64,000 nt of DNA from a virus, in the IMG/VR virus record IMGVR_UViG_3300035698_016797, positions 32,001 through 96,000 of that record. One strand, 5' to 3'. The notes beneath the pieces were generated by a model. The model searched no databases, was not told where the DNA came from, and saw only the letters and a list, made by a program, of their open reading frames with translations. Shown piece by piece: positions 7,785 to 61,946 of this stretch (the stretch's first letter is position 1; each line of letters opens with the position of its first letter). Position numbers and translations under genes: made by a program.

Positions 7785-8417
7785 ATGTCACAGAACGTAG
7801 CAGTATCATTCGGCGTCAACAAGATGAACCTGGAAATCGCAGGCCAGAGCCTCGCCACCGTCGCGCATCAGCTGAAGAGCCTCTTGGGGCTTGCCGGTGG
7901 CGAAACCCAGAAAGTCAATGGTCGCGAAGCTGCCAATGACTACATCCTCAAGGCTGGCGACAGGCTTGAGTTTGTGAAGGTCAGTGGTCGCAAGGGTGCA
8001 AACGTCTCCGTGACGTTCGGCGTCAACAAGATGAACCTGGAAATCTCAGGCCAGAGTCTGGCAACGGTTGCTCACCAGCTCAAGTCCCTCCTGGGACTTG
8101 CCGGTGGTGAGACCCAGAAGGTCAATGGTCGTACAGTGGCCAATGACTACATCCTCAAGGCTGGTGACAGGCTTGAGTTTGTGAAGGTCAGTGGTCGCAA
8201 GGGTTCGATCGCCGTCAGTGCCGGTGTGAACCGTATGGACCTGGAGCTGGCTGGTAAGACTGTCAGCCAGGTTCGTAAAGAGCTGGCAAGCCTGCTCCAC
8301 ATCGACAATACGTGGAAAGCGGAAGTCAATGGTGCCACCTGTGGTGCCACCAAACGCCTCCGCAACGGTGACAGTCTGGAATTCATCAAGGATTCCGGCA
8401 CCAAGGGTGATGGCTGA
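7785..8417 (+). CDS. tandem triple ubiquitin-like (beta-grasp) protein, poly-Ubl precursor
   Basis: three ~69 aa units ending SGRKG, SGRKG, SGTKG(+DG); KVNG and L..GD.LEF.K Ubl signature; GGAGG RBS. Confidence 0.9.
   Translation: MSQNVAVSFGVNKMNLEIAGQSLATVAHQLKSLLGLAGGETQKVNGREAANDYILKAGDRLEFVKVSGRKGANVSVTFGVNKMNLEISGQSLATVAHQLKSLLGLAGGETQKVNGRTVANDYILKAGDRLEFVKVSGRKGSIAVSAGVNRMDLELAGKTVSQVRKELASLLHIDNTWKAEVNGATCGATKRLRNGDSLEFIKDSGTKGDG
7807..8204 (+). repeat. 207-bp-period direct repeat (Ubl units 1 and 2)
   Basis: near-identical DNA, e.g. ttcggcgtcaacaagatgaacctggaaatc and gacaggcttgagtttgtgaaggtcagtggtcgcaagggt occur twice. Confidence 0.9.
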
Positions 8418-8447
8418 AACCATCAAATGCTATTGATGTAGCATTAG

Positions 8448-8481
8448 AGTCGGAGGGGGAATGTTCCCCTTCCGACTTTTT
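8448..8481 (+). terminator. Rho-independent terminator after the Ubl gene
   Basis: agtcgga..ggggaa-tg-ttcccc..tccgact followed by T-run. Confidence 0.75.
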
Positions 8482-8519
8482 CTTTCCAAACTGCACTAAA
8501 ACATGGAGGAATAACCAAC

Positions 8520-9251
8520 ATGGCGGCTCCAACCACAGTTCGAACCTACATTCGTATGGAAGGTGAGAGCACTGAACTAGTAGAGGAACGAGTCAAAAAG
8601 AGCTTTGAGACTGAATCTTTTCTTGAAGCACTGAGGCTCGAAGCTGGACTATCGTCCGGTCTCATTCCTCAAGATTGCATCTTCTTCTTCCGTAAACCAC
8701 CAACATCGGCAGAATCCGGTGATGATGCAGTTTACGTGATGGAAAAAGAACCTCGTACGGTCACTATGCACTTTCGCAATTCCGGTGCCAGCGGTAGCGG
8801 AACCGTTCATCCACTCAAAGTGTCTCTTCCGTACTGTCTTTTCTTCATACCCGTTAGAGGTGGAAACATACAGGACATTTGGCCAGTATGTTCAAAGCAG
8901 CGCATCAAAACCATAGATGATCCCATCTTTGTGTTGCCGATACCAAACGTGTACGATTCGGGCCATGGAAGAATTTGTGTTGGAAATCTTCGCATCGACA
9001 ATGAGAGTCCCATCCATGTGAGACTTAACAAGTTGGTGTCGATGGTTTTCACGTCTGAGTTCAACTTGGATTTGACCACGATCTATCCTTCTGTGATGGT
9101 GAAGAAGTCTGGTGAAGATCCATCCATTTTTGGATGGGCACACAAGTCGGAAGGCAATTCGTTGTTTGGATGCTCCGATGAGGTAGAGTACCTGCCTCAT
9201 AATTACGGAACATTCAAAGGTCTAATGGGGAATATAGGATGTCAACTGTAA
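8520..9251 (+). CDS. prokaryotic E2-like conjugating protein (E2 family D / PRTRC protein B-like)
   Basis: SLPY.LF and LPIPNVYDSGHGRICVG motif with candidate catalytic Cys; sits between Ubl and JAB. Confidence 0.7.
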   Translation: MAAPTTVRTYIRMEGESTELVEERVKKSFETESFLEALRLEAGLSSGLIPQDCIFFFRKPPTSAESGDDAVYVMEKEPRTVTMHFRNSGASGSGTVHPLKVSLPYCLFFIPVRGGNIQDIWPVCSKQRIKTIDDPIFVLPIPNVYDSGHGRICVGNLRIDNESPIHVRLNKLVSMVFTSEFNLDLTTIYPSVMVKKSGEDPSIFGWAHKSEGNSLFGCSDEVEYLPHNYGTFKGLMGNIGCQL

Positions 9252-9595
9252 AGCAGTTTGACAGAATATTGAGTGCAACTGAAAACATTCCAACCGTCAA
9301 TGCTCAACCAATCAGTTCCGTGTTTGGGGTTTTGACAAAAAACAGTGTTCCTCGGTTGCTGACAATTACCGGAAATGCGACAACTATCATGTTGGCGCAG
9401 TTTTTACTGTTCTTGCGCAGACAGTTGAAGCATGTAAAATGTTTGATGGTCCTTGACAACAAAAACAAGGGTCAAGTAGATCGCGCATTCGTTAAGGCTG
9501 AAGTGATTCAGAGAGACAGAGATGCTGCAAAAGCCATTGCGGCCAAGAAAAAAACCAAGGGTAAGACGGTCAAAAAGACCAAGGAGTTGTTCTGA
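9239..9595 (+). CDS. hypothetical protein within the Ubl operon, Lys-rich tail
   Basis: 118 aa, overlaps E2 stop and JAB start. Confidence 0.6.
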   Translation: MSTVKQFDRILSATENIPTVNAQPISSVFGVLTKNSVPRLLTITGNATTIMLAQFLLFLRRQLKHVKCLMVLDNKNKGQVDRAFVKAEVIQRDRDAAKAIAAKKKTKGKTVKKTKELF

Positions 9596-10680
9596 TGAAC
9601 AGATTCGTGACGTCCCAAGGCATCCCAATCATTACAATGGAAGATGGAGATGATGTGGAGTCCATTACGGACCCCATCTGTTTCATCGTTTCATCCAAAG
9701 GTTGCTTCGTAAAGAAGACCAATCGGTTCTACACTTCCGTAACCGCAACAGGAAAAGACGGAATCAGCGTGCTTGGAGAAGTCAAGCCGTTCGTATCTTT
9801 CGCAGTAACAAAGCTGCCGCTTCCGACATTCCGTGCCATTCGCCAGTTCTTCACTGATGTCTACAAGAAGATGCAATCTGAAGTGGCCATCATGTTGTAC
9901 TACGATTTCGATGCGAAGTTGTGGTTGTGGGTGGTTCCTGAGCAGAAGGTAACTGCCGCCAGTGTTGACTATGAGGAGACCGACAAATCCATCATCATCA
10001 ACCAGGACAACGAACGTATTGAAGGTCCGGTTCCAGACAGCTTTACGAAGCTCGGAAGTATCCATTCTCATGCAGGAATGGGAGCCTTCCATTCTGGTAC
10101 TGACAACGCTGACGAATTCCACTTCGACGGCCTACACATCACCATCGGCTCGTTCAACAAGGCAAGCAGTGGAGATTGTTCGTACTCTGCACGCTGGATC
10201 ATCGCCGGAGAAGAAGTGAAGACTGAAATCACGGAAGTGGTTGCAGATCTCGATCCTCCTGGAGAATACCCCGAAGATGCTCATGAAGCAGTAAAGAAGG
10301 GTACATCTGCCAGTCGCACTTATGGATCAGGACGTTCCATTGGTGCCGGTACAGGAAAAGGAGGTGCGGGTCAATCGGGAATAACAAACCCTACCCAGGC
10401 GGCGAAAGGCCGCCAGACGACGCAGACGACTCAGAGTGGCAAGCCTGGTACGAAACCTGGGGAAGGTGCGACGGTGGATACAACTGGTAAAGCTCCAGCG
10501 ACTGGTAAAGCTCCAGCGACTGGTAAAGCTCCAGCGACTGGTAAAGCTCCGACAACTGGGAAAGGTCCAGTGAAGGGTTTGACGGCAGGTGACACTCAAG
10601 CAGTGACTCCTCTCGTTCCGGCGAAAGGTTCAGAAGAAAAACCGGGCCAGGAAAAAAAAACCAAGACAGAGTCATCGTAG
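9595..10680 (+). CDS. JAB/MPN+ metallo-isopeptidase (PRTRC protein A-like) with low-complexity tail
   Basis: GSIHSHAGMGAFHSGTDNADE = HxH-x7-S-x2-D JAMM motif. Confidence 0.85.
   Translation: MNRFVTSQGIPIITMEDGDDVESITDPICFIVSSKGCFVKKTNRFYTSVTATGKDGISVLGEVKPFVSFAVTKLPLPTFRAIRQFFTDVYKKMQSEVAIMLYYDFDAKLWLWVVPEQKVTAASVDYEETDKSIIINQDNERIEGPVPDSFTKLGSIHSHAGMGAFHSGTDNADEFHFDGLHITIGSFNKASSGDCSYSARWIIAGEEVKTEITEVVADLDPPGEYPEDAHEAVKKGTSASRTYGSGRSIGAGTGKGGAGQSGITNPTQAAKGRQTTQTTQSGKPGTKPGEGATVDTTGKAPATGKAPATGKAPATGKAPTTGKGPVKGLTAGDTQAVTPLVPAKGSEEKPGQEKKTKTESS
10483..10572 (+). repeat. 18-bp tandem repeat x5 encoding TGKAPA
   Basis: actggtaaagctccagcg x3 exact plus two degenerate copies. Confidence 0.9.
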
Positions 10681-10840
10681 AGAATCCGGCGAGTGCGGGA
10701 ATACAATTCCTGAAAACGACTCCAGATCAGAGCAGTTCATAGAAAGAATGGTCGAAAGGTTCGGCTCTGAAGTTGGAGACAATCTTCAAGAGGCTGTTGA
10801 GTTGGCACGAGCCAGCCAACAGTCAGAAGGATAGAACGAT

Positions 10841-11551
10841 ATGTACAAGAATGTCATAGTTATTGGCTGTGGAGGAATTGGATCACATCTTCTTCCTCCG
10901 CTGACACGATTCTTCGCTTCAATGGAGAAAGAGAAGCGTCCCAAGGAAATGAGAATCGTTGATGGAGACAAGTATGAGCAAGGCAATGCCGATCGGCAAG
11001 AGTTTGTTGCTCGTCAAGTCAACCAGAATAAAGCAGAGGCGCAGAAGGAACGCTGTTCAGTCATTCACGAAGGAATGATGGACTACTATGCGTTCCCGGA
11101 ATACCTCGGTAGCGGCAATATTGACAGCATTATTGAAGAGGATTCAATTATCTTCATGTGTGTTGACAATCATGTTTGTCGCAGTATTGTGTCGAAACAC
11201 TGTCAAACGTTGAACAACGTTGCTCTCATCACGGGAGCAAACGAACTCACCGACGGCAACGTACAGATTTACGTCAGAAAAGATGGAAAGGATATGTCTC
11301 CTCCAATAGAAAAGAGACATCCTGAAATCAGCACGGCGAAAGATGGTGACAGATCAATGATGAGCTGTGAGGAGATTGAGAAGTTGCCCGGTGGTGGACA
11401 AATCATTCTGGTGAATGCTACCGCCGCGAATCTTCAATTTCAACTCGCTTGGGAATGGCTCTCTATCGGAAAGCTTCCTTTCGAGGAGGTATATTTCGAC
11501 GTTGAGTCAATCGGAATGCGTGGGGTGCCAAATGACTACTCCAAAAAGTAG
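10841..11551 (+). CDS. ThiF/E1-like activating enzyme
   Basis: VIGCGGIGSHL, VDGDKYE..N..RQ, NKAE, CVDNHVCR, candidate catalytic Cys in MSCEE. Confidence 0.9.
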   Translation: MYKNVIVIGCGGIGSHLLPPLTRFFASMEKEKRPKEMRIVDGDKYEQGNADRQEFVARQVNQNKAEAQKERCSVIHEGMMDYYAFPEYLGSGNIDSIIEEDSIIFMCVDNHVCRSIVSKHCQTLNNVALITGANELTDGNVQIYVRKDGKDMSPPIEKRHPEISTAKDGDRSMMSCEEIEKLPGGGQIILVNATAANLQFQLAWEWLSIGKLPFEEVYFDVESIGMRGVPNDYSKK

Positions 11552-12341
11552 CACAGCTCCTCCGGTAAAAAAGTCGGAAGCAAAAGCCAAAACAACCGCC
11601 AAGAAGGACGAGAAAAAAGCCGTAGTAAAGAAGGCTGACAAAGCTTCTGCGGCACCTATTCTGATTCCTGAAGAAATGAGGATTAGGTGTTTGTTTGTTG
11701 ATGGACTGGCTCCAAATCACGTAATAGTTGCCTACGGAGACGACAATGCGTCTTTGCTGAGCACTGGAGTGTGTGTTCGTGATCCAGAAAACAATAAACG
11801 GTTTTATCATATCACACAAATGTTGGTTGGTTTCACCCCAGAAACGGCCGGTCCTTACTTTCAGCCGTTGACTGGTCAAATGTTGCTGGCATCATTGAAG
11901 CATCACAAGGCTAAACTGACATTTCCTTTGACTGTATTTAGAGTTGTTCATCTGTGGGAAGATGGGAACATCATTGGATGGTCAAAAAGAAGTCAAGAGA
12001 AAGCCTTGGAGCGCAGTACTTCGATGTATCTCTGTGCACAGTGTAAAATTTCTGTGACAAATGGAGTTTACGCTCCTGGATGCTCTCCGTATTCAGAGGT
12101 TATAGCTAAAGCTGTAACCATGGCAGAGAGTAAAGTTGCGTTTCACAATCTGTTGGCAACTCGTGTGATTGAAGGCAACCACGATTTATGGTCGTTCTTG
12201 TCGGCCAACGCCTACCTTGATAGTCTGTGTACAAGGTGTCGTCTCTTGGCAATAAAAAGCCTAACTGGAGAAATAGTTACTCAGATTGCGACAACAGGAA
12301 GAATGAAACCGGTGTTTCAAAACGAAAAGGAGGTTGAGTAA
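11532..12341 (+). CDS. hypothetical protein (Lys/Ala-rich N-terminus, two CxxC)
   Basis: likely start MTTPK at 11532 overlapping the E1 end. Confidence 0.6.
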   Translation: MTTPKSSTAPPVKKSEAKAKTTAKKDEKKAVVKKADKASAAPILIPEEMRIRCLFVDGLAPNHVIVAYGDDNASLLSTGVCVRDPENNKRFYHITQMLVGFTPETAGPYFQPLTGQMLLASLKHHKAKLTFPLTVFRVVHLWEDGNIIGWSKRSQEKALERSTSMYLCAQCKISVTNGVYAPGCSPYSEVIAKAVTMAESKVAFHNLLATRVIEGNHDLWSFLSANAYLDSLCTRCRLLAIKSLTGEIVTQIATTGRMKPVFQNEKEVE

Positions 12342-13270
12342 TGGCTCAACAAGTAGTCTCTCATACCGTTTATATGACGGCAGAGACGGATGTAACTTTA
12401 CCACAGCTGGAAGGAGCAAACGAAGCTCTCGTTGAAGAGCTTAGAGTACTTCTTCTTGGCAATAAGAAGGTTGAAGCGGTTCAGAAGTTTCGTCTGGCAA
12501 CAGGCTGTTCTCTGAAGGATGCTGTAGACCGACTGATTATCGGCTGGTGGATGGAGTTTGCACAAAGTCTCATTGATCCGTCAAAATACCCAGAAAAGTG
12601 CTGTTTCAATTGTGTTGGAACGTGCGGCAAACTTGCCAATCTTCAATCTACAAATGGAGCAAAACTTTGGGACATTGACAATCAGATTCCATGTGGAACC
12701 AATTGCAGTGTGTTTATGACCCTTGAAGCCCTCAAGAAGAGTTTGGTGATCAAGGATAGCGCAGTACAGGTAAAACTTACCAACTCTGCCAACAGCAGTG
12801 TGACGAACATCATCGTTGACACTCCTATTGTGAAGACAGAAAGAAGCAATCGTGATGGCAAGGTTCTTGAAACGAAGTTTGTGATCCACTCAAAATCACA
12901 AGTTGTAACAAAAGTTTCAGGTGCAATCTGCAAACTGTTTCTTGCCGGTTTCCAATGGTCCTCAACCAATGGTTTCGAAGGAACTCTGACTGTTGGGACA
13001 TGTGAACCAAAAAGCAAGGAAACGTGGGAAAAATATCTTGAAAGAGCTTCTGAGGAAGTAAGAAAAGCTCGTGAGTGCGTCACCGAAACGTACCAGGCAA
13101 TGGATGAAAAGACTTTGTTCGCGGCTATGGAAAAATTCCTGACAAAGCGTGGACTGAAGAATGTTATTGCCAACTATAACGGTGATATTGAGTCTCTGTG
13201 TGACGACATGTTCCCAGATCAGGAACTGGTGTATGTTGCCATTGAATTCGCAAGGGAAGATTTGTCATGA
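12341..13270 (+). CDS. hypothetical protein with ribosomal bL12 C-terminal-like motif
   Basis: GNKKVEAVQKFRLATGCSLKDAVD resembles bL12-CTD KIEAIK.YRE.TG.GLKEAK. Confidence 0.55.
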   Translation: MAQQVVSHTVYMTAETDVTLPQLEGANEALVEELRVLLLGNKKVEAVQKFRLATGCSLKDAVDRLIIGWWMEFAQSLIDPSKYPEKCCFNCVGTCGKLANLQSTNGAKLWDIDNQIPCGTNCSVFMTLEALKKSLVIKDSAVQVKLTNSANSSVTNIIVDTPIVKTERSNRDGKVLETKFVIHSKSQVVTKVSGAICKLFLAGFQWSSTNGFEGTLTVGTCEPKSKETWEKYLERASEEVRKARECVTETYQAMDEKTLFAAMEKFLTKRGLKNVIANYNGDIESLCDDMFPDQELVYVAIEFAREDLS

Positions 13271-14169
13271 TTGTTATGATTGACCAATACGTTAAATTGC
13301 CAGACACTTCCGATTTCAAACCCATTGTTCCGAAGAATGCCAATGAAGGAAAAATCATTCTTCAATTCAAAACGACCTTTCGGAATCCTGAGACGCTCAG
13401 TATTATGAAAGATTGTCTGTTGTCCGCCGGTCATGAATGTGAAAGTTCTCGCATTGACCAGAAATGGTTAAATGAAGCCTTCACGCCAATCATGCACGAA
13501 ATGATCAAAGGGTTTGTTATATGGGGACTGCCGACCTTCATGAAGAAGGCAAGAGAGCATTCTCCAAGAGGGTTCGGAAGTGGTAGTAAAAGACGAGTTT
13601 TTATGAGAAGCCTCTTTGATCAGTTTTTGGAAGAGGGTTTTGCCTTAAAGTCGGCAGAAAACTTTGCACTCTCATCATTCTCTTCTATTGGATGGAGAAT
13701 GCCTGAAAGTATTCGTGTTAGAGGACAAGGTTGGACTACTCAAATTGCTCGCTCTTTCGGAAACTTTATTAACAATGTAAACCGTGGCAGAACGTCACAT
13801 TCAATCCTCAACGTGCTAAGAAGTTGTACTCCATACCCGTATGTGACAGAAGAGGGAGATCAGTTCGTACTTCCAAACAGTGACAATAAAAATGTGGTTG
13901 ATGCATGTCATCAGTTCACTAACATTATGAACGGCGTCATGGATAACACGAACGCAATATTCAACGAGATTGAATGGGTCTCTGACACCATGTCAGACAT
14001 GAATCCTTGCGGTAGAGCAGGATGTAACGAAGGAAACATGTGTTCAAGCTGTTACGATAGGCTGTACGATCTTGTTGATGGATGTGCCGGAAAGACTGAC
14101 GCTAACAGGTATTTTGTGACAGCTGTTGAAAATCGAGAAACCTTTGATAGCATAACGCCGTCAGAATAA
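13267..14169 (+). CDS. hypothetical protein
   Basis: 300 aa, C-terminal Cys cluster. Confidence 0.65.
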   Translation: MIVMIDQYVKLPDTSDFKPIVPKNANEGKIILQFKTTFRNPETLSIMKDCLLSAGHECESSRIDQKWLNEAFTPIMHEMIKGFVIWGLPTFMKKAREHSPRGFGSGSKRRVFMRSLFDQFLEEGFALKSAENFALSSFSSIGWRMPESIRVRGQGWTTQIARSFGNFINNVNRGRTSHSILNVLRSCTPYPYVTEEGDQFVLPNSDNKNVVDACHQFTNIMNGVMDNTNAIFNEIEWVSDTMSDMNPCGRAGCNEGNMCSSCYDRLYDLVDGCAGKTDANRYFVTAVENRETFDSITPSE

Positions 14170-14200
14170 CAACATTTAGTATTCAAGAAGGAACAGGAAA

Positions 14201-14962
14201 ATGGAAGAAACACCATCGTTCGTAGCAGAGGCACAGCGCCAACTTGAAGCGCAGAATGCAACACTTCAAGCAGAAGCGGAGGCTATGCTACAACAAACCG
14301 CGCAAAACGAAGAAAACATATCGGAACGTGTTACGGCTCAAGTCCCAGAAATGATGACGGCAGACAATGTTCTGTCTGAAGAACGTGAAAAAATGGCAAT
14401 TCTATATGCCGTAAACACGTATCTTGTCATCACCAATCGTGGATTTGGAGTTATTGACCTACTTAATTCGTGGGTAAGCAGCACTGGGTCAACGATTCCG
14501 GTTATGGATTTCTCGTGGTGTTCCGACAACTTGATCAACACCAACATCTTGAATGGGACAGTAAAACTTGATGACATTGTTGATTGGTTGAAGTCAATTG
14601 ACCCAACTCTCAGCGAAATGTTTCTTTGCTTCCATGGCAAGGTTGACGACACATTTGTCCAATTGGTTGCCAACATGGGCAGAGCAGAAGGTCTTCTGCC
14701 TTTCGCAGTTAAACTTTCACGTTCTTTCGACAAGATACCCGAGGGTACAAGAGGCTTTATCTGGCCACTTCCAAAAGGGGCAGGAAAACTCGAAGGCATG
14801 GAAGGTTTTGTACCTATCTTGCTGGAAAAAGAATTCCCCTTCTGTCACTCGTTTGAGATGGTGACTGGTGAGCCGATAGAAGGAGTCAATAAAAGAGGTT
14901 TCTTCATCTCACTTTCTTGCTTAGAACAGGATAATGGGGTGATGGTTGCCAAAAAGTGTTAA
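14201..14962 (+). CDS. hypothetical protein immediately upstream of the RT (candidate partner)
   Basis: 253 aa, Q/E-rich coiled N-terminus; stop 9 nt before RT start. Confidence 0.7.
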   Translation: MEETPSFVAEAQRQLEAQNATLQAEAEAMLQQTAQNEENISERVTAQVPEMMTADNVLSEEREKMAILYAVNTYLVITNRGFGVIDLLNSWVSSTGSTIPVMDFSWCSDNLINTNILNGTVKLDDIVDWLKSIDPTLSEMFLCFHGKVDDTFVQLVANMGRAEGLLPFAVKLSRSFDKIPEGTRGFIWPLPKGAGKLEGMEGFVPILLEKEFPFCHSFEMVTGEPIEGVNKRGFFISLSCLEQDNGVMVAKKC

Positions 14963-14971
14963 GGAGTACGT

Positions 14972-16249
14972 ATGCTGAATCAATTGTCACGACAGTTTGG
15001 AGAGCTGCCAGTAGAACTTGTTGCTAAAGATCAAAGCGACATTCCGATAGTGTCGTTTATTCAAGCTAGGCATGGGCCGGTATTGCCTGGTCGAAATATA
15101 AACGAGAAGGCATTTGGCCAACTACTTGAACTTCTGCTCGAAGGCAAGATTGTCAGAGTTAGATGTAATATAGATGCTTTTGCTCAAGAGATGGAGCATC
15201 TGAGAAAACTTGCATCTAAAAATGTTCTCATGGTATCTGCTACGGATATTTGGGAACATAATAGAGGTGAAGTTTACAAATTCAGGTTTAACGCATCAAG
15301 CGAATACTATATGGGACTTGATGAATTAGTAAATCCTGTTGATATAATTGCTTCTGTTCTTGGAGTGGAGGGAGAACTCCTTACAAGTCTTATGGCAGAT
15401 ATTTCGTCTCACTACAATCGCTTTCCATTGACAAAAAGGGATGGTTCGCAAAGATGGATTAACGCTCCAGACGATGATCTGAAAGGGGTTCAGAGACGCA
15501 TAATGAACAGAATGCTTTATCGTGGATGGGCAACTCCATGTGCTCACGGATTCATTCATGGAAAAAGTATTAAGACAAACGCAGAACGTCATGTTGGAGC
15601 CAAGGTTGTCGTCAAAATGGACATATCCAAATTCTTTGACAACATAGGAATTGACAAACTTAATACAGCCTTTGTTCCTCTGCTGAAAGCAGAAGAGCTT
15701 TTCACAATCAATTTTATCTCATCGTTGTGTACTCTCAACGGGGTCACCCCACAAGGAGCACCAACGAGTCCCGCACTATCAAATCTCGTGGTAAGAAACA
15801 TGGACTTTGCCCTCATGGGTTTAGCCAGAAAACATCACGCAGTCTACACGAGATATGCTGATGATTTGGTATTTTCCTCGAAAGATAATCGTGCATTACC
15901 ATCAATCATCCCTTTGGTAATGAACGTTGTCAACTCGAATGGGTTCCGAATCAACATGAGAAAAACCGGAGTCTTTCGCGACGGTGGAAGAATGCCGGTA
16001 ACCGGACTGGTAATCAATAAACATACAAACGTTCCTCGTAAGGAGCGTTATAAAGTACGTGCGGAGCTTCATAACATTGCAACTGGAAGAAAACCTGCAA
16101 GCGAAGAGGATCTTCAGCGTCTCGCCGGAAAGGTGGCGTTCATCAATATGGCGAATCCGCAACAGGGAGCACGTTTTGATAGTTTGATGACAGCAGCAAA
16201 GGCTGGTGCCGTACAATCAACGGAAGGTGCGGAAAACAATGACAGTTGA
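14972..16249 (+). CDS. retron-type reverse transcriptase with ~130 aa N-terminal extension
   Basis: KRDG..R.I..P, AHGF..GKSI..NAERH (region X), KMDISKFF, PQGAPTSP.LSN, YTRYADDLVFS, VTGL (region Y). Confidence 0.92.
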   Translation: MLNQLSRQFGELPVELVAKDQSDIPIVSFIQARHGPVLPGRNINEKAFGQLLELLLEGKIVRVRCNIDAFAQEMEHLRKLASKNVLMVSATDIWEHNRGEVYKFRFNASSEYYMGLDELVNPVDIIASVLGVEGELLTSLMADISSHYNRFPLTKRDGSQRWINAPDDDLKGVQRRIMNRMLYRGWATPCAHGFIHGKSIKTNAERHVGAKVVVKMDISKFFDNIGIDKLNTAFVPLLKAEELFTINFISSLCTLNGVTPQGAPTSPALSNLVVRNMDFALMGLARKHHAVYTRYADDLVFSSKDNRALPSIIPLVMNVVNSNGFRINMRKTGVFRDGGRMPVTGLVINKHTNVPRKERYKVRAELHNIATGRKPASEEDLQRLAGKVAFINMANPQQGARFDSLMTAAKAGAVQSTEGAENNDS

Positions 16250-16439: not shown

Positions 16440-16670
16440 TAGACTTTCGTTGACTTTGACTGCATAGACGTGCTCTTGACGGTGGGAATGAGGTAAAAAC
16501 CGTCACGGACGAGATCAAAAAGGAGTCTTATTTAAAAGACTTTTTCTCGTTCTTTTATATTAATTCCTCTCATGCATATGCTATCAGCTCTGATGTTTCA
16601 TCTGAGTGTAGTTTACATTCACAGCGTAGAGCGACACGGGGTCGCCTCCTGCTGTTAGAACGACCGTCTA
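16440..16670 (+). ncRNA. retron-like ncRNA candidate A
   Basis: arms tagac-tt-tcgtt|G / AG|aacga-cc-gtcta; ctc-t-GATG-ttt-CATC-t-gag 16588-16606; long stems ~16509-16550 and 16621-16655. Confidence 0.55.
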
Positions 16671-16900: not shown

Positions 16901-17071
16901 TGTAGATTGGTTTTAGCCAGATGTTTCATCTGGGAGATTATTACGTGGGCATCATAGTGAATACTACAAGTATTCACATTAAAGCCCCAGAGAGAGCCTA
17001 TCACGACTCGGCAGTCGTCCAAAGACGACTTTAGTCGTACCGGCTCACTCTCGGGGCTTAAAGAATCTACA
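16901..17071 (+). ncRNA. retron msr-msd-like ncRNA candidate B
   Basis: perfect 8-bp IR tgtagatt|GG ... AAG|aatctaca; hairpins ccaGATG-ttt-CATCtgg and gtgaatact-aca-agtattcac; branched long stem 16982-17059. Confidence 0.75.
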
Positions 17072-19274: not shown

Positions 19275-19523
19275 TTGATCAATTGGCTTGATTCATCAAG
19301 TGTCACGTTAGTTTTCTAGTTCCATGTGCCGGTTGTTTGCAGGATTCGTAAACAGAATGGCTTTGGTTAGATTACTTGAGTGGTATATTGTGAATCGTTT
19401 GTGATGTATCATCACAATGTGACAATGTGCAAGAGTATATTTTATGTTGACTCACTCTGGCGGCCTGGTAACTTATTGTATAACTTACCAGGCAGCCTAA
19501 GATGGTCAAAAAGAATTGATCAA
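19275..19523 (+). ncRNA. retron-like ncRNA candidate C
   Basis: 10-bp IR ttgatcaatt|GG ... AAG|aattgatcaa; ttgtGATG-tat-CATCacaa 19399-19417; long stem gcctggtaa/ttaccaggc within 19447-19510. Confidence 0.65.
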
Positions 19524-19898: not shown

Positions 19899-20204
19899 AT
19901 GAGCAAGGGTAAGAATAGCAAACAGGCAAACGCGAAACGTGAACGTCAAAAAAGACGCAGAGACGAAAAACGTAATCGCACCAAAGCAGAGCGCAAAGCA
20001 CGCAGAGCAGACATTAAACGAACCTCAAAGGTTGGAGTAAGACGCAACACCTCGAAAGAAGAAGATACCGAGCAATTGCACGCAATCGTTAAAGAAACGC
20101 TGAATCAAGCCGTAGGACATAAGCCTTCGGTAAATGCCGCTCAACTTTTTGACCAACATATGGCACTACAACAGTCAAAAACTGCGGAAGGAAGAGGAAG
20201 ATGA
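19899..20204 (+). CDS. basic (Arg/Lys-rich) hypothetical protein
   Basis: 101 aa, strongly basic N-terminal half. Confidence 0.6.
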   Translation: MSKGKNSKQANAKRERQKRRRDEKRNRTKAERKARRADIKRTSKVGVRRNTSKEEDTEQLHAIVKETLNQAVGHKPSVNAAQLFDQHMALQQSKTAEGRGR

Positions 20205-21274
20205 GTTCAGTTATAGCACCAGTGGCAACAATCGACAAAATCGAGCCACACCCAAACGCCGACAGACTCAAGCTTGCAACCGTACTAGGTTGGCAGACCG
20301 TCATTCCAATTGACAGTTCATGGAAAGAGGGAGACATCTGCGTCTTCGTTCCTCCAGACTGTCTACTTCCATCCAAGTGGGCAGAGCACTGGGGAGTGAC
20401 AAAATTCTTGGCCAAGAACAACAGAGTACGACGTATCAACCTTAGAGGAGAAGCGTCTTACGGATTTATCCAGCAGATTCCAGACGACATGTCTGTTACC
20501 ATTGGAGACAATCTCTCTGACGAGCTTGGTCTTGGCAAGTACTACCCTCCTCCTCCGAAGTGTAATGGTGGACCGAATCAAGGCAAGGGTGTGAGAACAC
20601 ATCCGTTGGTGCAGAAATACACCAACATCGAGTCCATCAGAAACTTCCCGTTCATTCTGGAGGTTGGAGAAGAGGTGGTAATCACAGAGAAAATTCACGG
20701 CTCCAATGTTAAAATTGGTCTCGTCAATGGTGAAGAGGTTGCATCCTCCATGAAGGTTCAAAGGGCAAAACCTGAGCACGAGGGTGAGTCTCCCGACGAA
20801 CTTGTCAAGGCCAATCGCTACTGGGGACCATGGTTTGCCCCTGGAATCAAGGATCTCATCTACTCCATTTACGAATCCTGCAAACAACCGGCACAGATTC
20901 TCTTGTATGGAGAGGTGTACGGATCTGGCATTCAGAAGGGATTCATGTATGGCCTAGACCAAGACAAGCAAGGGTTCCTGTCATTCGACATTTTGGTACA
21001 AGGACACTACCTTGGCTGGGAAGAGTTCCACGAACTGTGCACAACCTTCGGGGTTGGTACTCCAACCATCCTTTACAGAGGTCCGTTCATAGACCTTGCC
21101 CACATCAAAACCATTTGCGATGGCAACACATCTCTTGGTGGAGATCATGTGAGAGAGGGTGGAGTAATCAGACCCGTTGTGGAACGTCGCGCAGAAAAGG
21201 GTAACAGAGTTTGCTTCAAGTACAGAACCGACAGGTATCTTACTGGTAAGTTTGCAGACTCTCAAGACATATAG
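20201..21274 (+). CDS. ATP-dependent RNA ligase, DRB0094/Rnl5-like
   Basis: N-terminal OB-like IEPHPNADRL..ATV.GWQ; motif I TEKIHGSN; YGEVYG, FDI, REG.VI, FKY. Confidence 0.88.
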   Translation: MSSVIAPVATIDKIEPHPNADRLKLATVLGWQTVIPIDSSWKEGDICVFVPPDCLLPSKWAEHWGVTKFLAKNNRVRRINLRGEASYGFIQQIPDDMSVTIGDNLSDELGLGKYYPPPPKCNGGPNQGKGVRTHPLVQKYTNIESIRNFPFILEVGEEVVITEKIHGSNVKIGLVNGEEVASSMKVQRAKPEHEGESPDELVKANRYWGPWFAPGIKDLIYSIYESCKQPAQILLYGEVYGSGIQKGFMYGLDQDKQGFLSFDILVQGHYLGWEEFHELCTTFGVGTPTILYRGPFIDLAHIKTICDGNTSLGGDHVREGGVIRPVVERRAEKGNRVCFKYRTDRYLTGKFADSQDI

Positions 21275-21543: not shown

Positions 21544-22104
21544 ATGAAAGAAATACTTGTCGTAGATATAGAAACCACAGGATTCCTGAAACAAGGTGGA
21601 CTGATTGTCGAAATTGGAATTGTCAGTCTTGATCTGGACACAGGTGGAATTTCCGTACTGTTTGACTCCGTCGTTAAGGAAGGTGGATTTGGCCGTCAAC
21701 ACGCACAATCACCATTCGGATGGATCTTCCAAAATTCAAACTTAACATATGAAGACGTTGTAGCCTCAGAAAACCTCAAATGTCATATGTATCAACTTCA
21801 GACGATCTTTGACAATCATCCACTCGGTGCAACGGCATTCAATAAACAGTTTGACTTCGGGTTCTTGAAAGCACGGGGGTTGCACTTCAGAGAGCTTCCG
21901 TGCATTATGCTTGAAGCCTGTCCTGTTGTTAACCTTCCTCCAAATCGTGGTCGTTCAACACCTAAATGGCCTAAGGTAGAAGAGGCGTGGGAATATCTCT
22001 TTCCAAACAATGATTATGTTGAACAACATCGTGCCATTGATGATGTTGAACATGAGGCGATGATTCTTCACGAACTTTACATGCTTGGAAGGTATACGAT
22101 ATGA
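21544..22104 (+). CDS. DEDDh 3'-5' exonuclease (DnaQ-like)
   Basis: VDIETTG, AFN..FD..FL, HRAIDD. Confidence 0.88.
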   Translation: MKEILVVDIETTGFLKQGGLIVEIGIVSLDLDTGGISVLFDSVVKEGGFGRQHAQSPFGWIFQNSNLTYEDVVASENLKCHMYQLQTIFDNHPLGATAFNKQFDFGFLKARGLHFRELPCIMLEACPVVNLPPNRGRSTPKWPKVEEAWEYLFPNNDYVEQHRAIDDVEHEAMILHELYMLGRYTI

Positions 22105-23137: not shown

Positions 23138-23211
23138 GTACAGCGTTAGCTCATGATGGCGAGAGCGTCCTGTAATTGGGTATGGCGGAGGTTCGAGTCC
23201 TCTCCTGTACA
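23138..23211 (+). tRNA. tRNA-like pseudogene (intact D and T arms, shortened anticodon arm, no CCA)
   Basis: GTACAG/CTGTAC acceptor, TA-GCTC-loop-GAGC D arm, GGAGG-TTCGAGT-CCTCT T arm; only 20 nt between D and T stems. Confidence 0.6.
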
Positions 23212-23505: not shown

Positions 23506-23715
23506 TTGACTACAGCAAATGTGCACGAAATAACATGCAGGTCGTGTAAAAAGAATATGGGTTCATACTTAGAGAAGGAGCGCAAGCGAGAAGAGCGTGT
23601 ACTGCGTAACCTACAAAGACAAATACGCAAAATAGCCGCTACTATTCTCGAACTTGAGAATGAAAAGCGGGCCGTGAGCAAAAAGATCAGCGACATGTTA
23701 AACAAAATTCAATAA
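23506..23715 (+). CDS. hypothetical coiled-coil protein, start uncertain
   Basis: frame is open from 23461; RBS-linked ATG at 23457 is out of frame by 1 nt. Confidence 0.45.
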   Translation: MTTANVHEITCRSCKKNMGSYLEKERKREERVLRNLQRQIRKIAATILELENEKRAVSKKISDMLNKIQ

Positions 23716-23731
23716 AGTCAGGAGAAGTATT

Positions 23732-23932
23732 ATGGGACTGAAAGAATTTAGAGATCCAAACGGCGAAGCACGTCGTCCAGAGTGGAATCGTCCAAACAAA
23801 AAAGCAGCAGCAAATCTCAAGAGACGCGTAAAGGGACACAACTCCGTCATTGGTGGTGTACCCTCCAACGTTGTATCTTCTCATACCGGCAACTGTCCCG
23901 GAAGCATGAAAATTCCCGGACGCGGAGCATAA
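23732..23932 (+). CDS. small basic protein
   Basis: 66 aa, AGGAG RBS. Confidence 0.55.
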   Translation: MGLKEFRDPNGEARRPEWNRPNKKAAANLKRRVKGHNSVIGGVPSNVVSSHTGNCPGSMKIPGRGA

Positions 23933-23947
23933 TCAGACAGACCTGAC

Positions 23948-24381
23948 AATTTCTCATTGGCTTGGTCCTCGGACAGCTTGATGAATCATCAAGCCGCTAA
24001 CATATTGAGGTCTCAATTCTCATCAAAGCGAGAATTGATTCCATGAAATATACTTTATTATACTAATTCCGCATTTGAATTCACAGGATGATAACTACTG
24101 AGAACCTGGAATCCGGCGTACATCTCATCTGTTAATGAGATGCTGTGCCGCCACAAGGCGGCACTCTGCCGGACACCTGGACTCAGAGTTCTAATCACAC
24201 CAGGTTCCTCCTCGAAGACTTACTGGGAAACCCAGTAAGAGCCAGCAGTTCCCTGGGGGACGCCCAGGGAAAGGCAGGCTGGACCAGGCTACACCTGGTC
24301 TGGGAATATCTTCGAGCCACCTGGTTCTGCAAATTCACAGGCTCATTAGTATATTAATGATATATTTCAAGAATGGGAATT
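23948..24381 (+). ncRNA. retron-like ncRNA candidate D (multi-arm, CCWGG-rich)
   Basis: arms aatttctcatt|GG ... AAG|aatgggaatt; gcttGATG-aat-CATCaagc 23976-23994; many perfect stems 24101-24328. Confidence 0.65.
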
Positions 24382-24382
24382 C

Positions 24383-24636
24383 TATGATTCATTGGATTGC
24401 ATACTAGTTGCATGTGTGATGTTTCATCACACTTTAACATTAACATAGAAAATAAGTATCCTTTCTCAGCAAAGAACCCACAGGGTTTTTGCTGCGAGGA
24501 TGCTTATGGCTCCTGGATGGTACTGAATTAAAATGAATTGGCAATTGATTTTAATACAGCACAATCACGCGCTGCACTTTCTGCTGCTCTACGCTCAGCA
24601 GAGTTCAGCTCTCAGGAACCTTAAGAATGAATCGTA
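24383..24636 (+). ncRNA. retron-like ncRNA candidate E
   Basis: 11-bp arms tatgattcatt|GG ... AAG|aatgaatcgta; gtgtGATG-ttt-CATCacac 24414-24432; stems 24452-24507 and 24511-24617. Confidence 0.7.
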
Positions 24637-24740
24637 TTTTAGGAGTATCGTCTAACGAAATAGGATACTGTGGTAGCAATACCCAGAGATGCAGGACTAT
24701 CCCTGTTACTCCAACTTTAGAGTTTGTTGATTTTAGCTCC

Positions 24741-24768
24741 TTGAACCCATGACAAAGTGTGGTATATT
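24741..24768 (+). promoter_or_regulatory. sigma70-like promoter upstream of nrdJ
   Basis: TTGAAC-N16-TATATT with TGn extended -10. Confidence 0.45.
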
Positions 24769-24849
24769 CTAGTACTATATAGGAGTCCCGGCCAAAAATG
24801 CTGTCGGGTAGAATTTCTTATCCAGTACAAAGACTCAAGGAGATTTATA

Positions 24850-26724
24850 ATGGTTGATTTTGCAAACGAATTGTCTAAGTTTGTCTTCGTGCGTTCATAT
24901 GCACGTTGGCAACCCGAACTTGGACGCAGAGAGACGTGGGAAGAGGTTGTGGATCGTGTTCTAACTTTCTTGTTGGAGGAGAGAGGTGAACACATTCCAG
25001 AGAAAACTGTACGCAAAATTAGAGAATACATGTTGACTTTCAACGTGATGCCATCCATGAGGTTGGTTTGGACAGCAGGTGCTCCGGCAAGAAAAGACAA
25101 TACGTGCATTTACAACTGTGCGTTTTCCAACATAGATAGTATCGAATCTTTTGCAGAAAACCTATACATCTTAATGTGTGGATCTGGGTTTGGATTCTCC
25201 GTTAGCAGAGAAGCTATCTCTAAACTTCCTATCGTTCCAAACATTGATGTTATGAACGTTGTATATCATACCGTTGACGATTCTCGTGAAGGATGGTCCA
25301 ACTCACTAAAAGTTTTACTTACCGAACTGTACGAAGGGCGATTTGTTCATTTTGATTACAGTGAAGTGAGACCCGAAGGTGCACGTCTTCAAACTATGGG
25401 TGGAAAAGCTTCTGGTCCAGCACCACTTATCAATCTTCATACCTTTGTTACGGAAACACTTTTGGAAGCACAAGGTAGACAACTCACCTCTGTTGAATGT
25501 CACGACATCTGTACTCAAATAGCAGAAGCAGTGGTTGTTGGTGGAGTAAGACGCTCTTCTGAAATCTCATTGTCCGACTTAGACGATATGGATATGAGAC
25601 ATGCTAAAGATTGGCCATTTCCTGCAAAAAGAATGATGGCAAACAACTCTGCAATCTACAGAGAAAAACCGTCTGCAACAGAGTTTCTGGCAGAATGGTC
25701 TGCACTGGCATCTTCTGGCACTGGAGAAAGAGGAATATTCAATCTTGAGGGTGTACGTAATACCGCTCCATCCAGACGTGATGAAAAACTAATCGAAGGG
25801 TGCAATCCTTGTGGAGAAATCTCTCTTCGTAATAAACAGTTTTGCAATCTTACAGAGGTTGTGGTAAAACCAGATGACGATCTCGATACATTGCTTGATA
25901 AAGTTGAAACTGCAACCTGGCTAGGTACAATACAGTCTACATTCACACATTTCCCATTCATCAGTCCAGAGTGGAAGAAGAATTGTGAAGAGGAAAGATT
26001 GCTTGGAGTTTCTCTCACAGGACTATGTGACAACCCGAAGATAATCGAACCGATGGTTCTTAAGGCACTGAAAAATAGAGTGAGGAAAGTTGCCAGACGT
26101 GCCGCCAAATCACTCAACGTTTCATATCCTAAAGCATTAACGTGTATAAAGCCATCAGGTACTGTTTCTCAACTGGTAAACGCTTCATCAGGGTTGCATT
26201 CCAGATATTCACAATTCTATATGAGACGCTTTCGCATCTCTAAAATGGACTCTCTGTTTCACATGATGAGGGATCAAGGTTTTGACTTCGTTCCAGAAGT
26301 AAACCAAGAACCGGAAACTGCATCAACATGGGTTTGTAGCTTCCCCGTAAAGGCTCCATCCGAATCGTTGAAAAGATCAGACTTAGATGCAATAGACCAA
26401 CTGGAAATATACCAAACCATCAAAGAAAACTGGTGCGAACACAACGCTTCATGTACGGTGTACATCAAAGATGATGAGTGGTTTGAAGTTGGTAATTGGG
26501 TTTACAAACATTGGGATATAGTGAATGGATTGAGTTTTCTGCCGTATGATAATGGTAGATACCAATTAGCTCCATTTGAAGAGATTTCAGAAGAACAGTT
26601 TGTGGAGCAAAATGAACAGCAAATACCAATTGACTATTCGCAATTAGGAACTTACGAAAATGATGACAACACCGATGGTGCAAAAACATATGCTTGCTCT
26701 GGTGACAAGTGCGAACTCAAGTAA
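24850..26724 (+). CDS. nrdJ: class II (adenosylcobalamin-dependent) ribonucleotide reductase
   Basis: RETWEE, MPSMR, YNC, GGVRRS, NPCGEI, FCNLTEV, KPSGTVS, WCEHN.S.TV, C-terminal CSGDKCE; AAGGAG RBS at 24850. Confidence 0.93.
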   Translation: MVDFANELSKFVFVRSYARWQPELGRRETWEEVVDRVLTFLLEERGEHIPEKTVRKIREYMLTFNVMPSMRLVWTAGAPARKDNTCIYNCAFSNIDSIESFAENLYILMCGSGFGFSVSREAISKLPIVPNIDVMNVVYHTVDDSREGWSNSLKVLLTELYEGRFVHFDYSEVRPEGARLQTMGGKASGPAPLINLHTFVTETLLEAQGRQLTSVECHDICTQIAEAVVVGGVRRSSEISLSDLDDMDMRHAKDWPFPAKRMMANNSAIYREKPSATEFLAEWSALASSGTGERGIFNLEGVRNTAPSRRDEKLIEGCNPCGEISLRNKQFCNLTEVVVKPDDDLDTLLDKVETATWLGTIQSTFTHFPFISPEWKKNCEEERLLGVSLTGLCDNPKIIEPMVLKALKNRVRKVARRAAKSLNVSYPKALTCIKPSGTVSQLVNASSGLHSRYSQFYMRRFRISKMDSLFHMMRDQGFDFVPEVNQEPETASTWVCSFPVKAPSESLKRSDLDAIDQLEIYQTIKENWCEHNASCTVYIKDDEWFEVGNWVYKHWDIVNGLSFLPYDNGRYQLAPFEEISEEQFVEQNEQQIPIDYSQLGTYENDDNTDGAKTYACSGDKCELK

Positions 26725-60878: not shown

Positions 60879-61946
60879 TTAGTTATTTTTATTTCTTACT
60901 TTTTTCCTATACTCTTCTGTTCTTTTGGACATCAATTCGTGAGCCTTCTTTGCTGTGTCAGAATTACGCAAGTTGTGCAGCCTTTCCTGCTCTGTAATAT
61001 CTTCAAAGATTTGCTCTACTATGTCCATTATCCATTGTGTACCTATGACGGCCATACTAGGCTTGATAGGTCTGTTAATCTTCTCCGAAATCTTGTCAGT
61101 ATGAAGGAATATTGTTTTTAGTAGCCTATAGAGGATTTTGTTCCCATACTTTTTCATATACCGACCCATCAATTTACAATCTTTACCCCATACAGGAAAA
61201 CTGAGGACACTTGTTGTGTCTTGACTGTGTGCAATACCACAGAAATAGAATATCACAAAATCTCTACTGGTCCAGTCTGAGATGTTCTTTTCAAGAGTCT
61301 CTTCTAGTAACATGTATTCTCGATACACAGGGTAAGACTTAAGAGCTTCGTCTGGATCAACCTTAACTCTCTTATCCTTTCCATTAGAAGAAGATTTTTT
61401 AGATTCTAAAGGAGAAGCGACAACGCTCGCTTCCTTCTCTTCAATATGAGTCTCTTCAATATGAGTCTCTTTAAGGGAGGTTAACCCCTGTTTACTTCCC
61501 GAGGTTAACACGGGTTTACTTCCCGAGGTTAATATGGGTTTACTTCCCGAAGTTAACACGGGTTTACTTCCTGATTCCAACTCTTCGTCTGCAAGAGCAG
61601 ATGCGTCTATATTATCCAGTTCAGAATCTCCTTCGTGGAAGAGAGGATGGTCTAAAAAGAAGTATACACAAGACCTGTTATTTCTTCTGTCAACACCTTT
61701 TGGTTTTGTAACTTCTACTAGTGCCACGTTTTCTAGCTCTACTAAATATTTGAGAATAGTAGGTTTTGAAACTCCTAGTGCTTCTGCAAGAGTATTTTGT
61801 TTGGGGAAACAAAATCCATCTCTTCCTGCATATTGGGCGAGTCTACCATATGTAATCTTAGCACCGGCAGATATGATTTTGCTTTCAACAAGACAGTTCG
61901 GAATAAAGATTCCAACAAACTTCCTGTGTGGATTTATCCTATTCAT
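60879..61946 (-). CDS. HTH replication initiator-like protein
   Basis: GAK..YG.L...G..G.CFP...TLA..LGVS..TI...L.EL winged-HTH; internal SGSKPVLT repeats. Confidence 0.75.
   Translation of the reverse strand: MNRINPHRKFVGIFIPNCLVESKIISAGAKITYGRLAQYAGRDGFCFPKQNTLAEALGVSKPTILKYLVELENVALVEVTKPKGVDRRNNRSCVYFFLDHPLFHEGDSELDNIDASALADEELESGSKPVLTSGSKPILTSGSKPVLTSGSKQGLTSLKETHIEETHIEEKEASVVASPLESKKSSSNGKDKRVKVDPDEALKSYPVYREYMLLEETLEKNISDWTSRDFVIFYFCGIAHSQDTTSVLSFPVWGKDCKLMGRYMKKYGNKILYRLLKTIFLHTDKISEKINRPIKPSMAVIGTQWIMDIVEQIFEDITEQERLHNLRNSDTAKKAHELMSKRTEEYRKKVRNKNN
61477..61572. repeat. four 24-bp direct repeats (iteron-like) inside the initiator gene
   Basis: gaggttaacacgggtttacttccc consensus x4, mostly containing the palindrome GTTAAC; adjacent 15-bp duplication 61436-61470. 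Confidence 0.9.

Follow-up and report, generated by a model that had tools for sequence, protein, structure and literature searches.

Gene content of the locus

The window analyzed herein, meaning the whole stretch of 64,000 nucleotides, comprises positions 32001-96000 of a virus record that is 181,030 bp long and has direct terminal repeats, and the same sequence is present in several salt-lake metagenome runs. The feature of interest, which we call element D, occupies a gap of ~820 nt without a convincing ORF, between a 66-aa ORF and the gene for a class II ribonucleotide reductase (RNR). The surrounding genes, which include those for an RNA ligase and an RNase T-like exonuclease, are phage genes that all lie on the plus strand (Table 1). 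Within the GC-rich core of element D, a 70-codon GTG frame (24145-24357) was considered as a coding sequence and rejected, because it has no Pfam match and crosses stems. No gene for a C5 or N4/N6 methylase was found when the phage genome was looked through. Two further features of the window were recorded in passing: a tRNA-Ile with the unusual anticodon AAT, called by ARAGORN at 23138-23211 (the Rfam tRNA model stayed below its gathering score window-wide), and four 24-nt tandem repeats (85-100% alike) at 61477-61572, in the gap before the strand switch at ~62 kb, which look like iterons.

Table 1. Features of the locus, with positions given in the window
Feature	Position	Strand	Remarks
Protein of three tandem ubiquitin-like (ThiS-type) repeats	7785-8417		207-nt tandem repeat
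Prok-E2_D	8520-9251		
ThiF-type E1	10841-11551		
Retron-type reverse transcriptase (RT)	14972-16249	+	425 aa; N-terminal extension of ~125 aa; candidate enzyme for D
Element A	16440-16670		
Element B	16901-17071	+	Family member nearest to the RT; architectural model for coreless D
Element C	19275-19523	+	Long stem with one CCTGG/CCAGG pair
RNA ligase	20201-21274	+	
RNase T-like exonuclease	21544-22104	+	
66-aa ORF	23732-23932	+	
Element D	23948-24381		Largest of the five elements
D, 5' closing arm, then GG	23951-23960	+	Arm of 8 nt ending in ATT; pairs with 24372-24379, with one G.U
D, GATG-N3-CATC hairpin	23976-23994	+	4-bp covarying extension
D, second short hairpin	24013-24038	+	9-bp stem
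D, AT-rich basal stem of the long template-like stem, 5' half	24044-24069	+	Pairs with 24345-24369
D, left 10-bp direct repeat	24078-24087	+	AATTCACAGG
D, GC-rich core	24088-24331	+	244 nt; 55% GC; all eight CCWGG
D, ACCWGGT, site 1 of 3 in the genome	24199-24205		Pairs with 24319-24325 in minimum-energy folds
D, ACCWGGT, site 2 of 3 in the genome	24293-24299		
D, ACCWGGT, site 3 of 3 in the genome	24319-24325		
D, right 10-bp direct repeat	24332-24341	+	Second copy of AATTCACAGG
D, AT-rich basal stem, 3' half	24345-24369	+	
D, AAG, then 3' closing arm	24369-24379	+	Arm of 8 nt starting with AAT
Element E	24386-24633	+	Begins 7 nt past D; perfect 8-bp arms, same boundary; GATG hairpin at 24418
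Class II ribonucleotide reductase (RNR)	24757-26724	+	

The candidate enzyme for element D is a retron-type RT, which matches Pfam RVT_1 at 7.7e-25 and, among PADLOC models, RT_XIII best (1.7e-78), with other retron RT models next. Its NAxxH, YADD, and VTG motifs are intact, with residues A204/H207, Y295-D298, and V343-G345 invariant in 21 relatives, and it thereby carries the NAxxH, YxDD, and VTG motifs of the retron clade. The RT is the last gene of an operon that opens with a triple ubiquitin-like protein, a Prok-E2, and a ThiF-type E1, and whose part upstream of the RT (7785-14962) also holds four unannotated ORFs. By Pfam, neither SWIM/winged-helix nor HEAT/ARM domains were found in the seven upstream ORFs (the four unannotated ones included) or in the downstream neighbors, and no NDT-like or other known retron effector was recognized among the phage genes near the RT and D. 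Element B lies 650 nt downstream of the RT. Between the RT stop codon and the start of element D further downstream lie 7.7 kb and at least 12 genes, and D is thus not contiguous with the RT in the manner of a retron.

A family of stem-closed elements

Element D is one of five elements, A to E, and the minimum-energy fold of each closes on its boundary arms. The boundary ATT/GG ... AAG/AAT (the slash marking the inner end of each arm) is common to B, C, D, and E. When perfect Watson-Crick 8-nt arms with the boundary ATT/GG ... AG/AAT were sought on both strands of the whole genome, only B, C, and E were returned, with perfect arms of 8-10 bp; D also presents, in silico, a1/a2-like inverted repeats and the conserved G 3' of a1. 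With one G.U pair allowed, as D needs, the pattern has 10 matches versus 5.2 expected genome-wide, such that the arms of D alone are not statistically special, and a relaxed 8-bp arm pattern is at chance level (17 matches versus 19.6 expected). Hence, the membership of D in the family rests on co-occurring features and on clustering. One of these features is a GATG-N3-CATC hairpin with an extended stem, which occurs in all five elements and in the intergenic gaps of four related phages. Across 12 copies from 5 phages, the extension of this hairpin covaries (0.54 versus 0.14 in shuffles, with 0 of 500 as high), and double changes number 24, versus 10 in shuffles.

The GATG hairpins lie at 16592, 16920, 19403, 23980, and 24418 in the window and, in relatives, at L084 9083 and 12781, L085 12933, L088 13792, and L089 13852 and 13984. 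They precede gene starts by 85-340 nt, have TTT as the loop in most cases, and are followed by an A/T-rich hexamer; they could be a promoter or processing signal, instead of or besides an RT handle. Of other shared words, the 8-mer ATTCACAG has six plus-strand copies genome-wide, three of which lie in A and D (16617, 24079, and 24333), and element B carries ATTCACAT at 16970. Rfam returned no family at gathering score in the window and none for A, B, C, D, or E; at E values of up to 10, the matches over 23900-24800 were at chance level. The idea that elements of this lineage serve as a "polylinker" was discarded, as six-bp palindromes show no enrichment in A-E, nor in the majority of the gaps of relatives. 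To judge from the predicted folds, the geometry of D and its family is that of a retron msr-msd unit, with closing arms, an unpaired G, short hairpins, and a long stem.

A GC-rich core in the apical loop of element D

Element D spans 429 nt, whereas the other members, here and in relatives, span 150-273 nt. The difference resides in the core, which has a GC content of 55%, versus 34% in the remainder of D, and which is flanked by the only two exact copies of a 10-bp repeat in the window, as a target-site duplication would be. Removing 24088-24341 (the core and one repeat) leaves 175 nt that adopt a B-like fold, consisting of the arms, GG, the GATG hairpin, the second hairpin, a 26-bp AT-rich stem, a 23-nt loop, AAG, and the 3' arm. 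Since removal of the repeat-bracketed core restores a B-like element, the CCWGG array appears to sit as cargo in the apical loop, and D looks like an ordinary family element with a 244-nt insert in the apical loop of its template-like stem. The core itself comprises two stem-closed domains of 106 nt (24102-24207 and 24211-24316), each folding at z ~ -5.5; an origin of the two by duplication was rejected, as they do not align. In word usage, the core ranks at the 2nd-3rd percentile genome-wide, ACCWGGT being the word that departs most from the norm. Terminal inverted repeats do not abut the duplication, the sole inverted match (AGAACCWGG) being weak and lying 13 nt and 3 nt inside the repeats, and no second copy of the core, as expected of a MITE or IS-derived insertion, was found in the phage genome. 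In four further salt-lake runs (2017-2019), the contigs that overlap parts of 23700-24800, with several stretches left uncovered, contain no differences, joints, or empty-site form.

The CCWGG cluster and its fold

A sequence-only reading of this DNA had proposed that D holds eight CCWGG sites that fold into duplex arms and serve as a decoy for a restriction enzyme or methylase. All eight sites are present (24105, 24176, 24200, 24252, 24264, 24284, 24294, and 24320), five as CCTGG and three as CCAGG, with irregular spacings of 71, 24, 52, 12, 20, 10, and 26 nt. The genome holds 186 CCWGG sites (1.03 per kb), 178 of them outside D, and no other 230-nt window across the 181 kb contains eight. 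The runner-up, with five sites in 230 nt (genome positions 177749-178121, outside the window), has an ordinary cause, given that its sites fall in tRNA D-loop and T-arm sequences. Because each stem that bears the word contributes two sites, the core was shuffled with its predicted base pairs and composition kept; 20,000 such shuffles gave a mean of 0.62 CCWGG and a maximum of 7. The earlier hand estimate of ~0.5 expected sites thus lies near both this null and the 0.24 expected from genome density. As none of the 20,000 shuffles reached eight, the enrichment goes beyond what GC content and paired arms produce.

The multi-branched fold and the perfect stems that had been named are likewise there, and the region folds far below shuffle energies on both strands (z = -11.1 for plus and -11.6 for minus). 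All eight sites can be paired, as had been stated, yet no single set of partners follows, since each CCTGG is complementary to every CCAGG, and minimum-energy folds choose other partners for some sites. Specifically, both the RNA and the DNA minimum-energy folds contain three perfect CCWGG duplexes (24199-24205/24319-24325, 24283-88/24294-99, and 24251-57/24263-69) and a fourth, 24105/24176, with a central W.W mismatch, while the partners given earlier (24175/24205 and 24101/24328) represent an alternative pairing of similar quality. The minus-strand predicted DNA fold also forms three perfect duplex sites, and in that predicted fold, a CCWGG duplex stands in a DNA stem-loop, as it does in Ec86. 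Given that only 2 of 119 pairs on the plus strand are G.U and that the minus strand folds at least as well, nothing marks D as RNA-specific.

Purged restriction words and ACCWGGT

Genome-wide, 14 six-base palindromes are absent where 6-52 copies each were expected (CTGCAG, GAGCTC, GGATCC, TCCGGA, GCATGC, ATCGAT, GGTACC, CACGTG, AGGCCT, AGCGCT, GCCGGC, GTCGAC, CTCGAG, and GGCGCC), as are all four RGGWCCY words. This indicates strong restriction avoidance by the phage, and the set of purged words suggests a host range in which restriction systems abound. A further palindrome, TCTAGA, has one copy in the whole genome. CCWGG is merely mildly under-represented (observed/expected 0.78), comparable to GATC or CATG, and since so many other sites are fully purged, this leaves no sign of CCWGG restriction pressure on the phage. 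By contrast, ACCWGGT, the SexAI-type site, has 3 copies genome-wide versus 16.2 expected, and all three are inside D, spanning 127 nt; in structure-preserving shuffles, the chance of three or more was 5e-5. Thus, D is the sole place where the phage breaks its own avoidance of ACCWGGT, and the relevant restriction word is ACCWGGT rather than CCWGG, because the former belongs to the purged class and the latter does not.

Comparison with related phages

Neither blastn against 50,697 phage records nor a look through the RNR-linked loci (L002-L081) and RT-linked loci (L084-L197) found a homolog of D. Scanning for exact patterns was equally fruitless in IMG/VR, in GTDB genomes, and, with two patterns, in JGI metagenome contigs, and the 30 matches to a generic GC-hairpin pattern were unrelated. 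The genes that flank D (the 66-aa ORF and RNR) do not occur within 10 kb of the RT in relatives, and phages with a similar RNR are without the RT. Relatives at 34-48% RT identity exhibit the gene order E2 - E1 - unknown ORFs - RT - (RNase H) - gap - RuvB, with E2-E1-RT retained in L084-L086, L088, and L089. Directly after the RT, they carry one to four tandem elements of the form arm-G ... AG-arm, 150-273 nt long: G006 has four of them in a stretch of ~600 nt, L086 has a pair, and L085 has a single one. In two of them, the gene directly after the RT encodes RNase H (L084 8415-8825 and L085 8486-8911), and tmRNAs were found in the same two (L084 13582-14016 and L085 14825-15241; Rfam 108-113 bits); the phage studied herein has no PF00075 match in its genome and no tmRNA in the window.

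Two of these relatives, G006 (the record of L088) and G007 (the record of L089), are complete phage genomes, and both have purged restriction words of their own. G006 holds 1 CCWGG versus 208 expected, 0 GATC versus 686, and 0 CTAG versus 108, while G007 holds 1 GATC versus 402 expected and 9 GGCC versus 81. We looked in both for surviving purged sites clustered in the RT-linked elements, as ACCWGGT is in D, and saw no such clustering; the four RT-linked elements of G006 contain no CCWGG. In the present phage, elements A and B have none either.

Interpretation and alternatives

Taken together, the sequence-only reading stands in part. The site cluster, the fold, the intact RT, and the element architecture shared with relatives all bear it out, while CCWGG pressure and arrays in A, B, and G006 are missing. 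Its central proposal, a decoy against CCWGG host restriction, is not supported, given the observed/expected ratio of 0.78 and the lack of an array in the CCWGG-purged G006. The explanation that we prefer would keep the retron-like template and change its purpose. In it, D would be the largest of five stem-closed, retron-style ncRNA genes downstream of a phage retron-type RT, framed like B; the apical loop of its long stem, a position at which retron templates tolerate cargo, would hold a two-domain core of 244 nt organized around the word (A)CCWGG(T). The RT would prime from the G after the 5' arm and copy the long stem and its cargo. The single-stranded DNA would then refold into hairpins that display one mismatched site and three perfect CCWGG duplexes, including one complete ACCWGGT, and these hairpins would engage a CCWGG-family restriction endonuclease or cytosine methylase, from the host or from a rival phage. 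That reverse-transcribed D would indeed present three perfect CCWGG duplexes to a site-specific enzyme, as modeled from the predicted fold, is a tentative proposal, and one that we place on the unlikely side.

Were such a DNA made, a bait or methylation sensor, in which cutting or methylation of the small DNA would be the signal, seems by analogy with Ec86 more likely than a stoichiometric sponge, and has a precedent, since methylation of the CCTGG of Ec86 triggers that system. The template gene does place three ACCWGGT sites in the duplex genome of the phage itself, which would come at a cost in the presence of a SexAI-type enzyme. Several findings count against this explanation, namely the 7.7 kb between D and the RT, a CCWGG word that is not purged, the lack of a methylase gene in the phage and of a D homolog among the records searched, and two complete relatives whose RT-linked elements do not cluster surviving purged sites. 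The joint reading, in which the template-loop cargo is an array of a word purged elsewhere and the multicopy hairpin DNA baits a SexAI- or EcoRII/Dcm-type enzyme, is accordingly ambitious, and we consider it quite improbable as a whole. If it were true, cutting or methylation of the bait could inform the phage of which defense or rival it faces, possibly via the Ubl-E2-E1 proteins, or could blunt the enzyme.

The main rival explanation regards the core as foreign or selfish DNA that recently entered the loop of an ordinary element, as a MITE-like insertion or through recombination, with sites inherited from its source, unpurged as yet and without a restriction role. The direct repeat that flanks exactly the GC-rich core, the excess length of D and its return to a B-like 175 nt once the core and one repeat are taken out, the divergent GC content and word usage of the core, and its possession of the sole copies of a purged word all favor an insertion. 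Yet neither this genome nor IMG/VR, the JGI metagenome contigs, or the GTDB genomes hold another copy, and the terminal inverted repeat is weak and offset from the direct repeats. Further, eight CCWGG sites would still need a cause in the source element, and selection should act strongly against three sites of a purged word, yet the contigs from four other runs, sampled in 2017-2019, are identical where they cover D. On balance, we regard the insertion as rather unlikely. Alternatively, D may act only as an RNA, be it a structured regulatory, stabilizing, or protein-binding RNA of the early region, with CCUGG and CCAGG as interchangeable pairing modules for alternative folds. The very stable fold would suit such an RNA, as would the several mutually exclusive pairings that five CCTGG and three CCAGG permit. 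The GATG hairpins, here and in relatives, precede gene starts as promoter or leader elements would, and these phages keep other RNA genes (tRNA and tmRNA) in the same gaps. However, an RNA role leaves the sole ACCWGGT copies in D unexplained, has no Rfam match behind it, and sits poorly with the near lack of G.U pairs and with a minus strand that folds at least as well as the plus strand; we consider it unlikely.

The two remaining explanations appear very unlikely to us. One is the strict form of the earlier proposal, in which unmethylated, multivalent CCWGG DNA would act as a sponge, titrating host enzymes of the EcoRII or Dcm type and thereby shielding the phage genome. Duplex sites do form in the predicted DNA fold, and against such an enzyme, the 178 CCWGG sites elsewhere in the genome would have to be protected, but this genome bears no sign of the pressure, and G006, a relative that faces it, uses avoidance and has no array. 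Multivalent CCWGG DNA would also be likelier to help EcoRII than to block it: it is established that short CCWGG duplexes activate the enzyme in trans on refractory DNA, as Krueger and co-workers reportedly found in 1988. Moreover, a turnover enzyme consumes a cleavable decoy, the elements of this phage lineage are not enriched in 6-bp restriction palindromes, and no C5 or N4/N6 methylase gene was found in the phage. The other, to which we would give just as little credence, places the function in duplex DNA, with (A)CCWGG(T) as a binding-site array for a phage or host protein (at a replication origin or in packaging or regulation) between AT-rich unwinding flanks, and with ACCWGGT kept from the rest of the genome so that a phage enzyme would not bind or cut at unintended places. 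The restriction of the three ACCWGGT sites to the D locus, the AT-rich flanks at 24040-24075 and 24343-24375, and the equal folding of both strands, as pure inverted repeats should give, agree with this proposal. The irregular site spacing does not, and the closing arms and hairpins of D are common to four other elements that lack the sites. In addition, the ACCWGGT purge sits among ~15 other purged palindromes, which restriction avoidance fits better.

Significance and relation to known systems

Retrons are known as bacterial defenses in which a small DNA senses phage enzymes. That one candidate template holds the single restriction word breaking the avoidance of its phage offers a concrete link between a phage RT and restriction-modification. 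Nature may likewise have placed cargo in a retron template loop here, a design used in retron genome editing. If the core proves to be only a stray insertion, purged-word statistics could serve to date insertions in phage genomes. New here are the purged-word set, the confinement of ACCWGGT to D, the element family to which D belongs, and its insert architecture. The observation is solid and the ACCWGGT anomaly striking; D itself is an orphan element, and its mechanism is a proposed one.

Among known systems, Retron-Eco1 (Ec86) provides the nearest parallel for the sites. A single CCTGG in the stem-loop of its msDNA is methylated by a phage Dcm, which triggers the retron (bioRxiv 10.1101/2023.08.16.553469). 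A retron-type RT is found in both cases, as is a CCWGG duplex in the RT-DNA stem (predicted, for D) that would contact a cytosine methylase or restriction-modification enzyme. Ec86, however, is bacterial and has one site, an adjacent ncRNA, an NDT effector, and a proven DNA product, whereas D is phage-borne, has eight sites, lies 7.7 kb from the RT, has no recognized effector nearby, and is known from sequence alone. The core also resembles a MITE or other small non-autonomous insertion, in being short, highly structured, compositionally distinct, and flanked by a 10-bp direct repeat, but it differs in having no convincing terminal inverted repeats at its junctions and no second copy anywhere searched. 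For the RT, the best profile match is to type XIII retrons (Mx162, Mx65, Sa163, and Ne144), which make long msDNAs (Mestre et al. 2020, PMC7736814) and whose RT, like the one described herein, is extended at its N terminus. Type XIII retrons have defining SWIM/winged-helix and HEAT/ARM partners and one contiguous ncRNA, whereas in this phage, the RT ends a Ubl-E2-E1 operon, the candidate templates are several and dispersed, and such partners are unseen by Pfam. On paper, D would thus work like a retron template, but we do not claim that it is a proven retron; its nearest known counterparts are nonetheless retrons, with Ec86 matching in the proposed CCWGG contact and type XIII in the RT profile.
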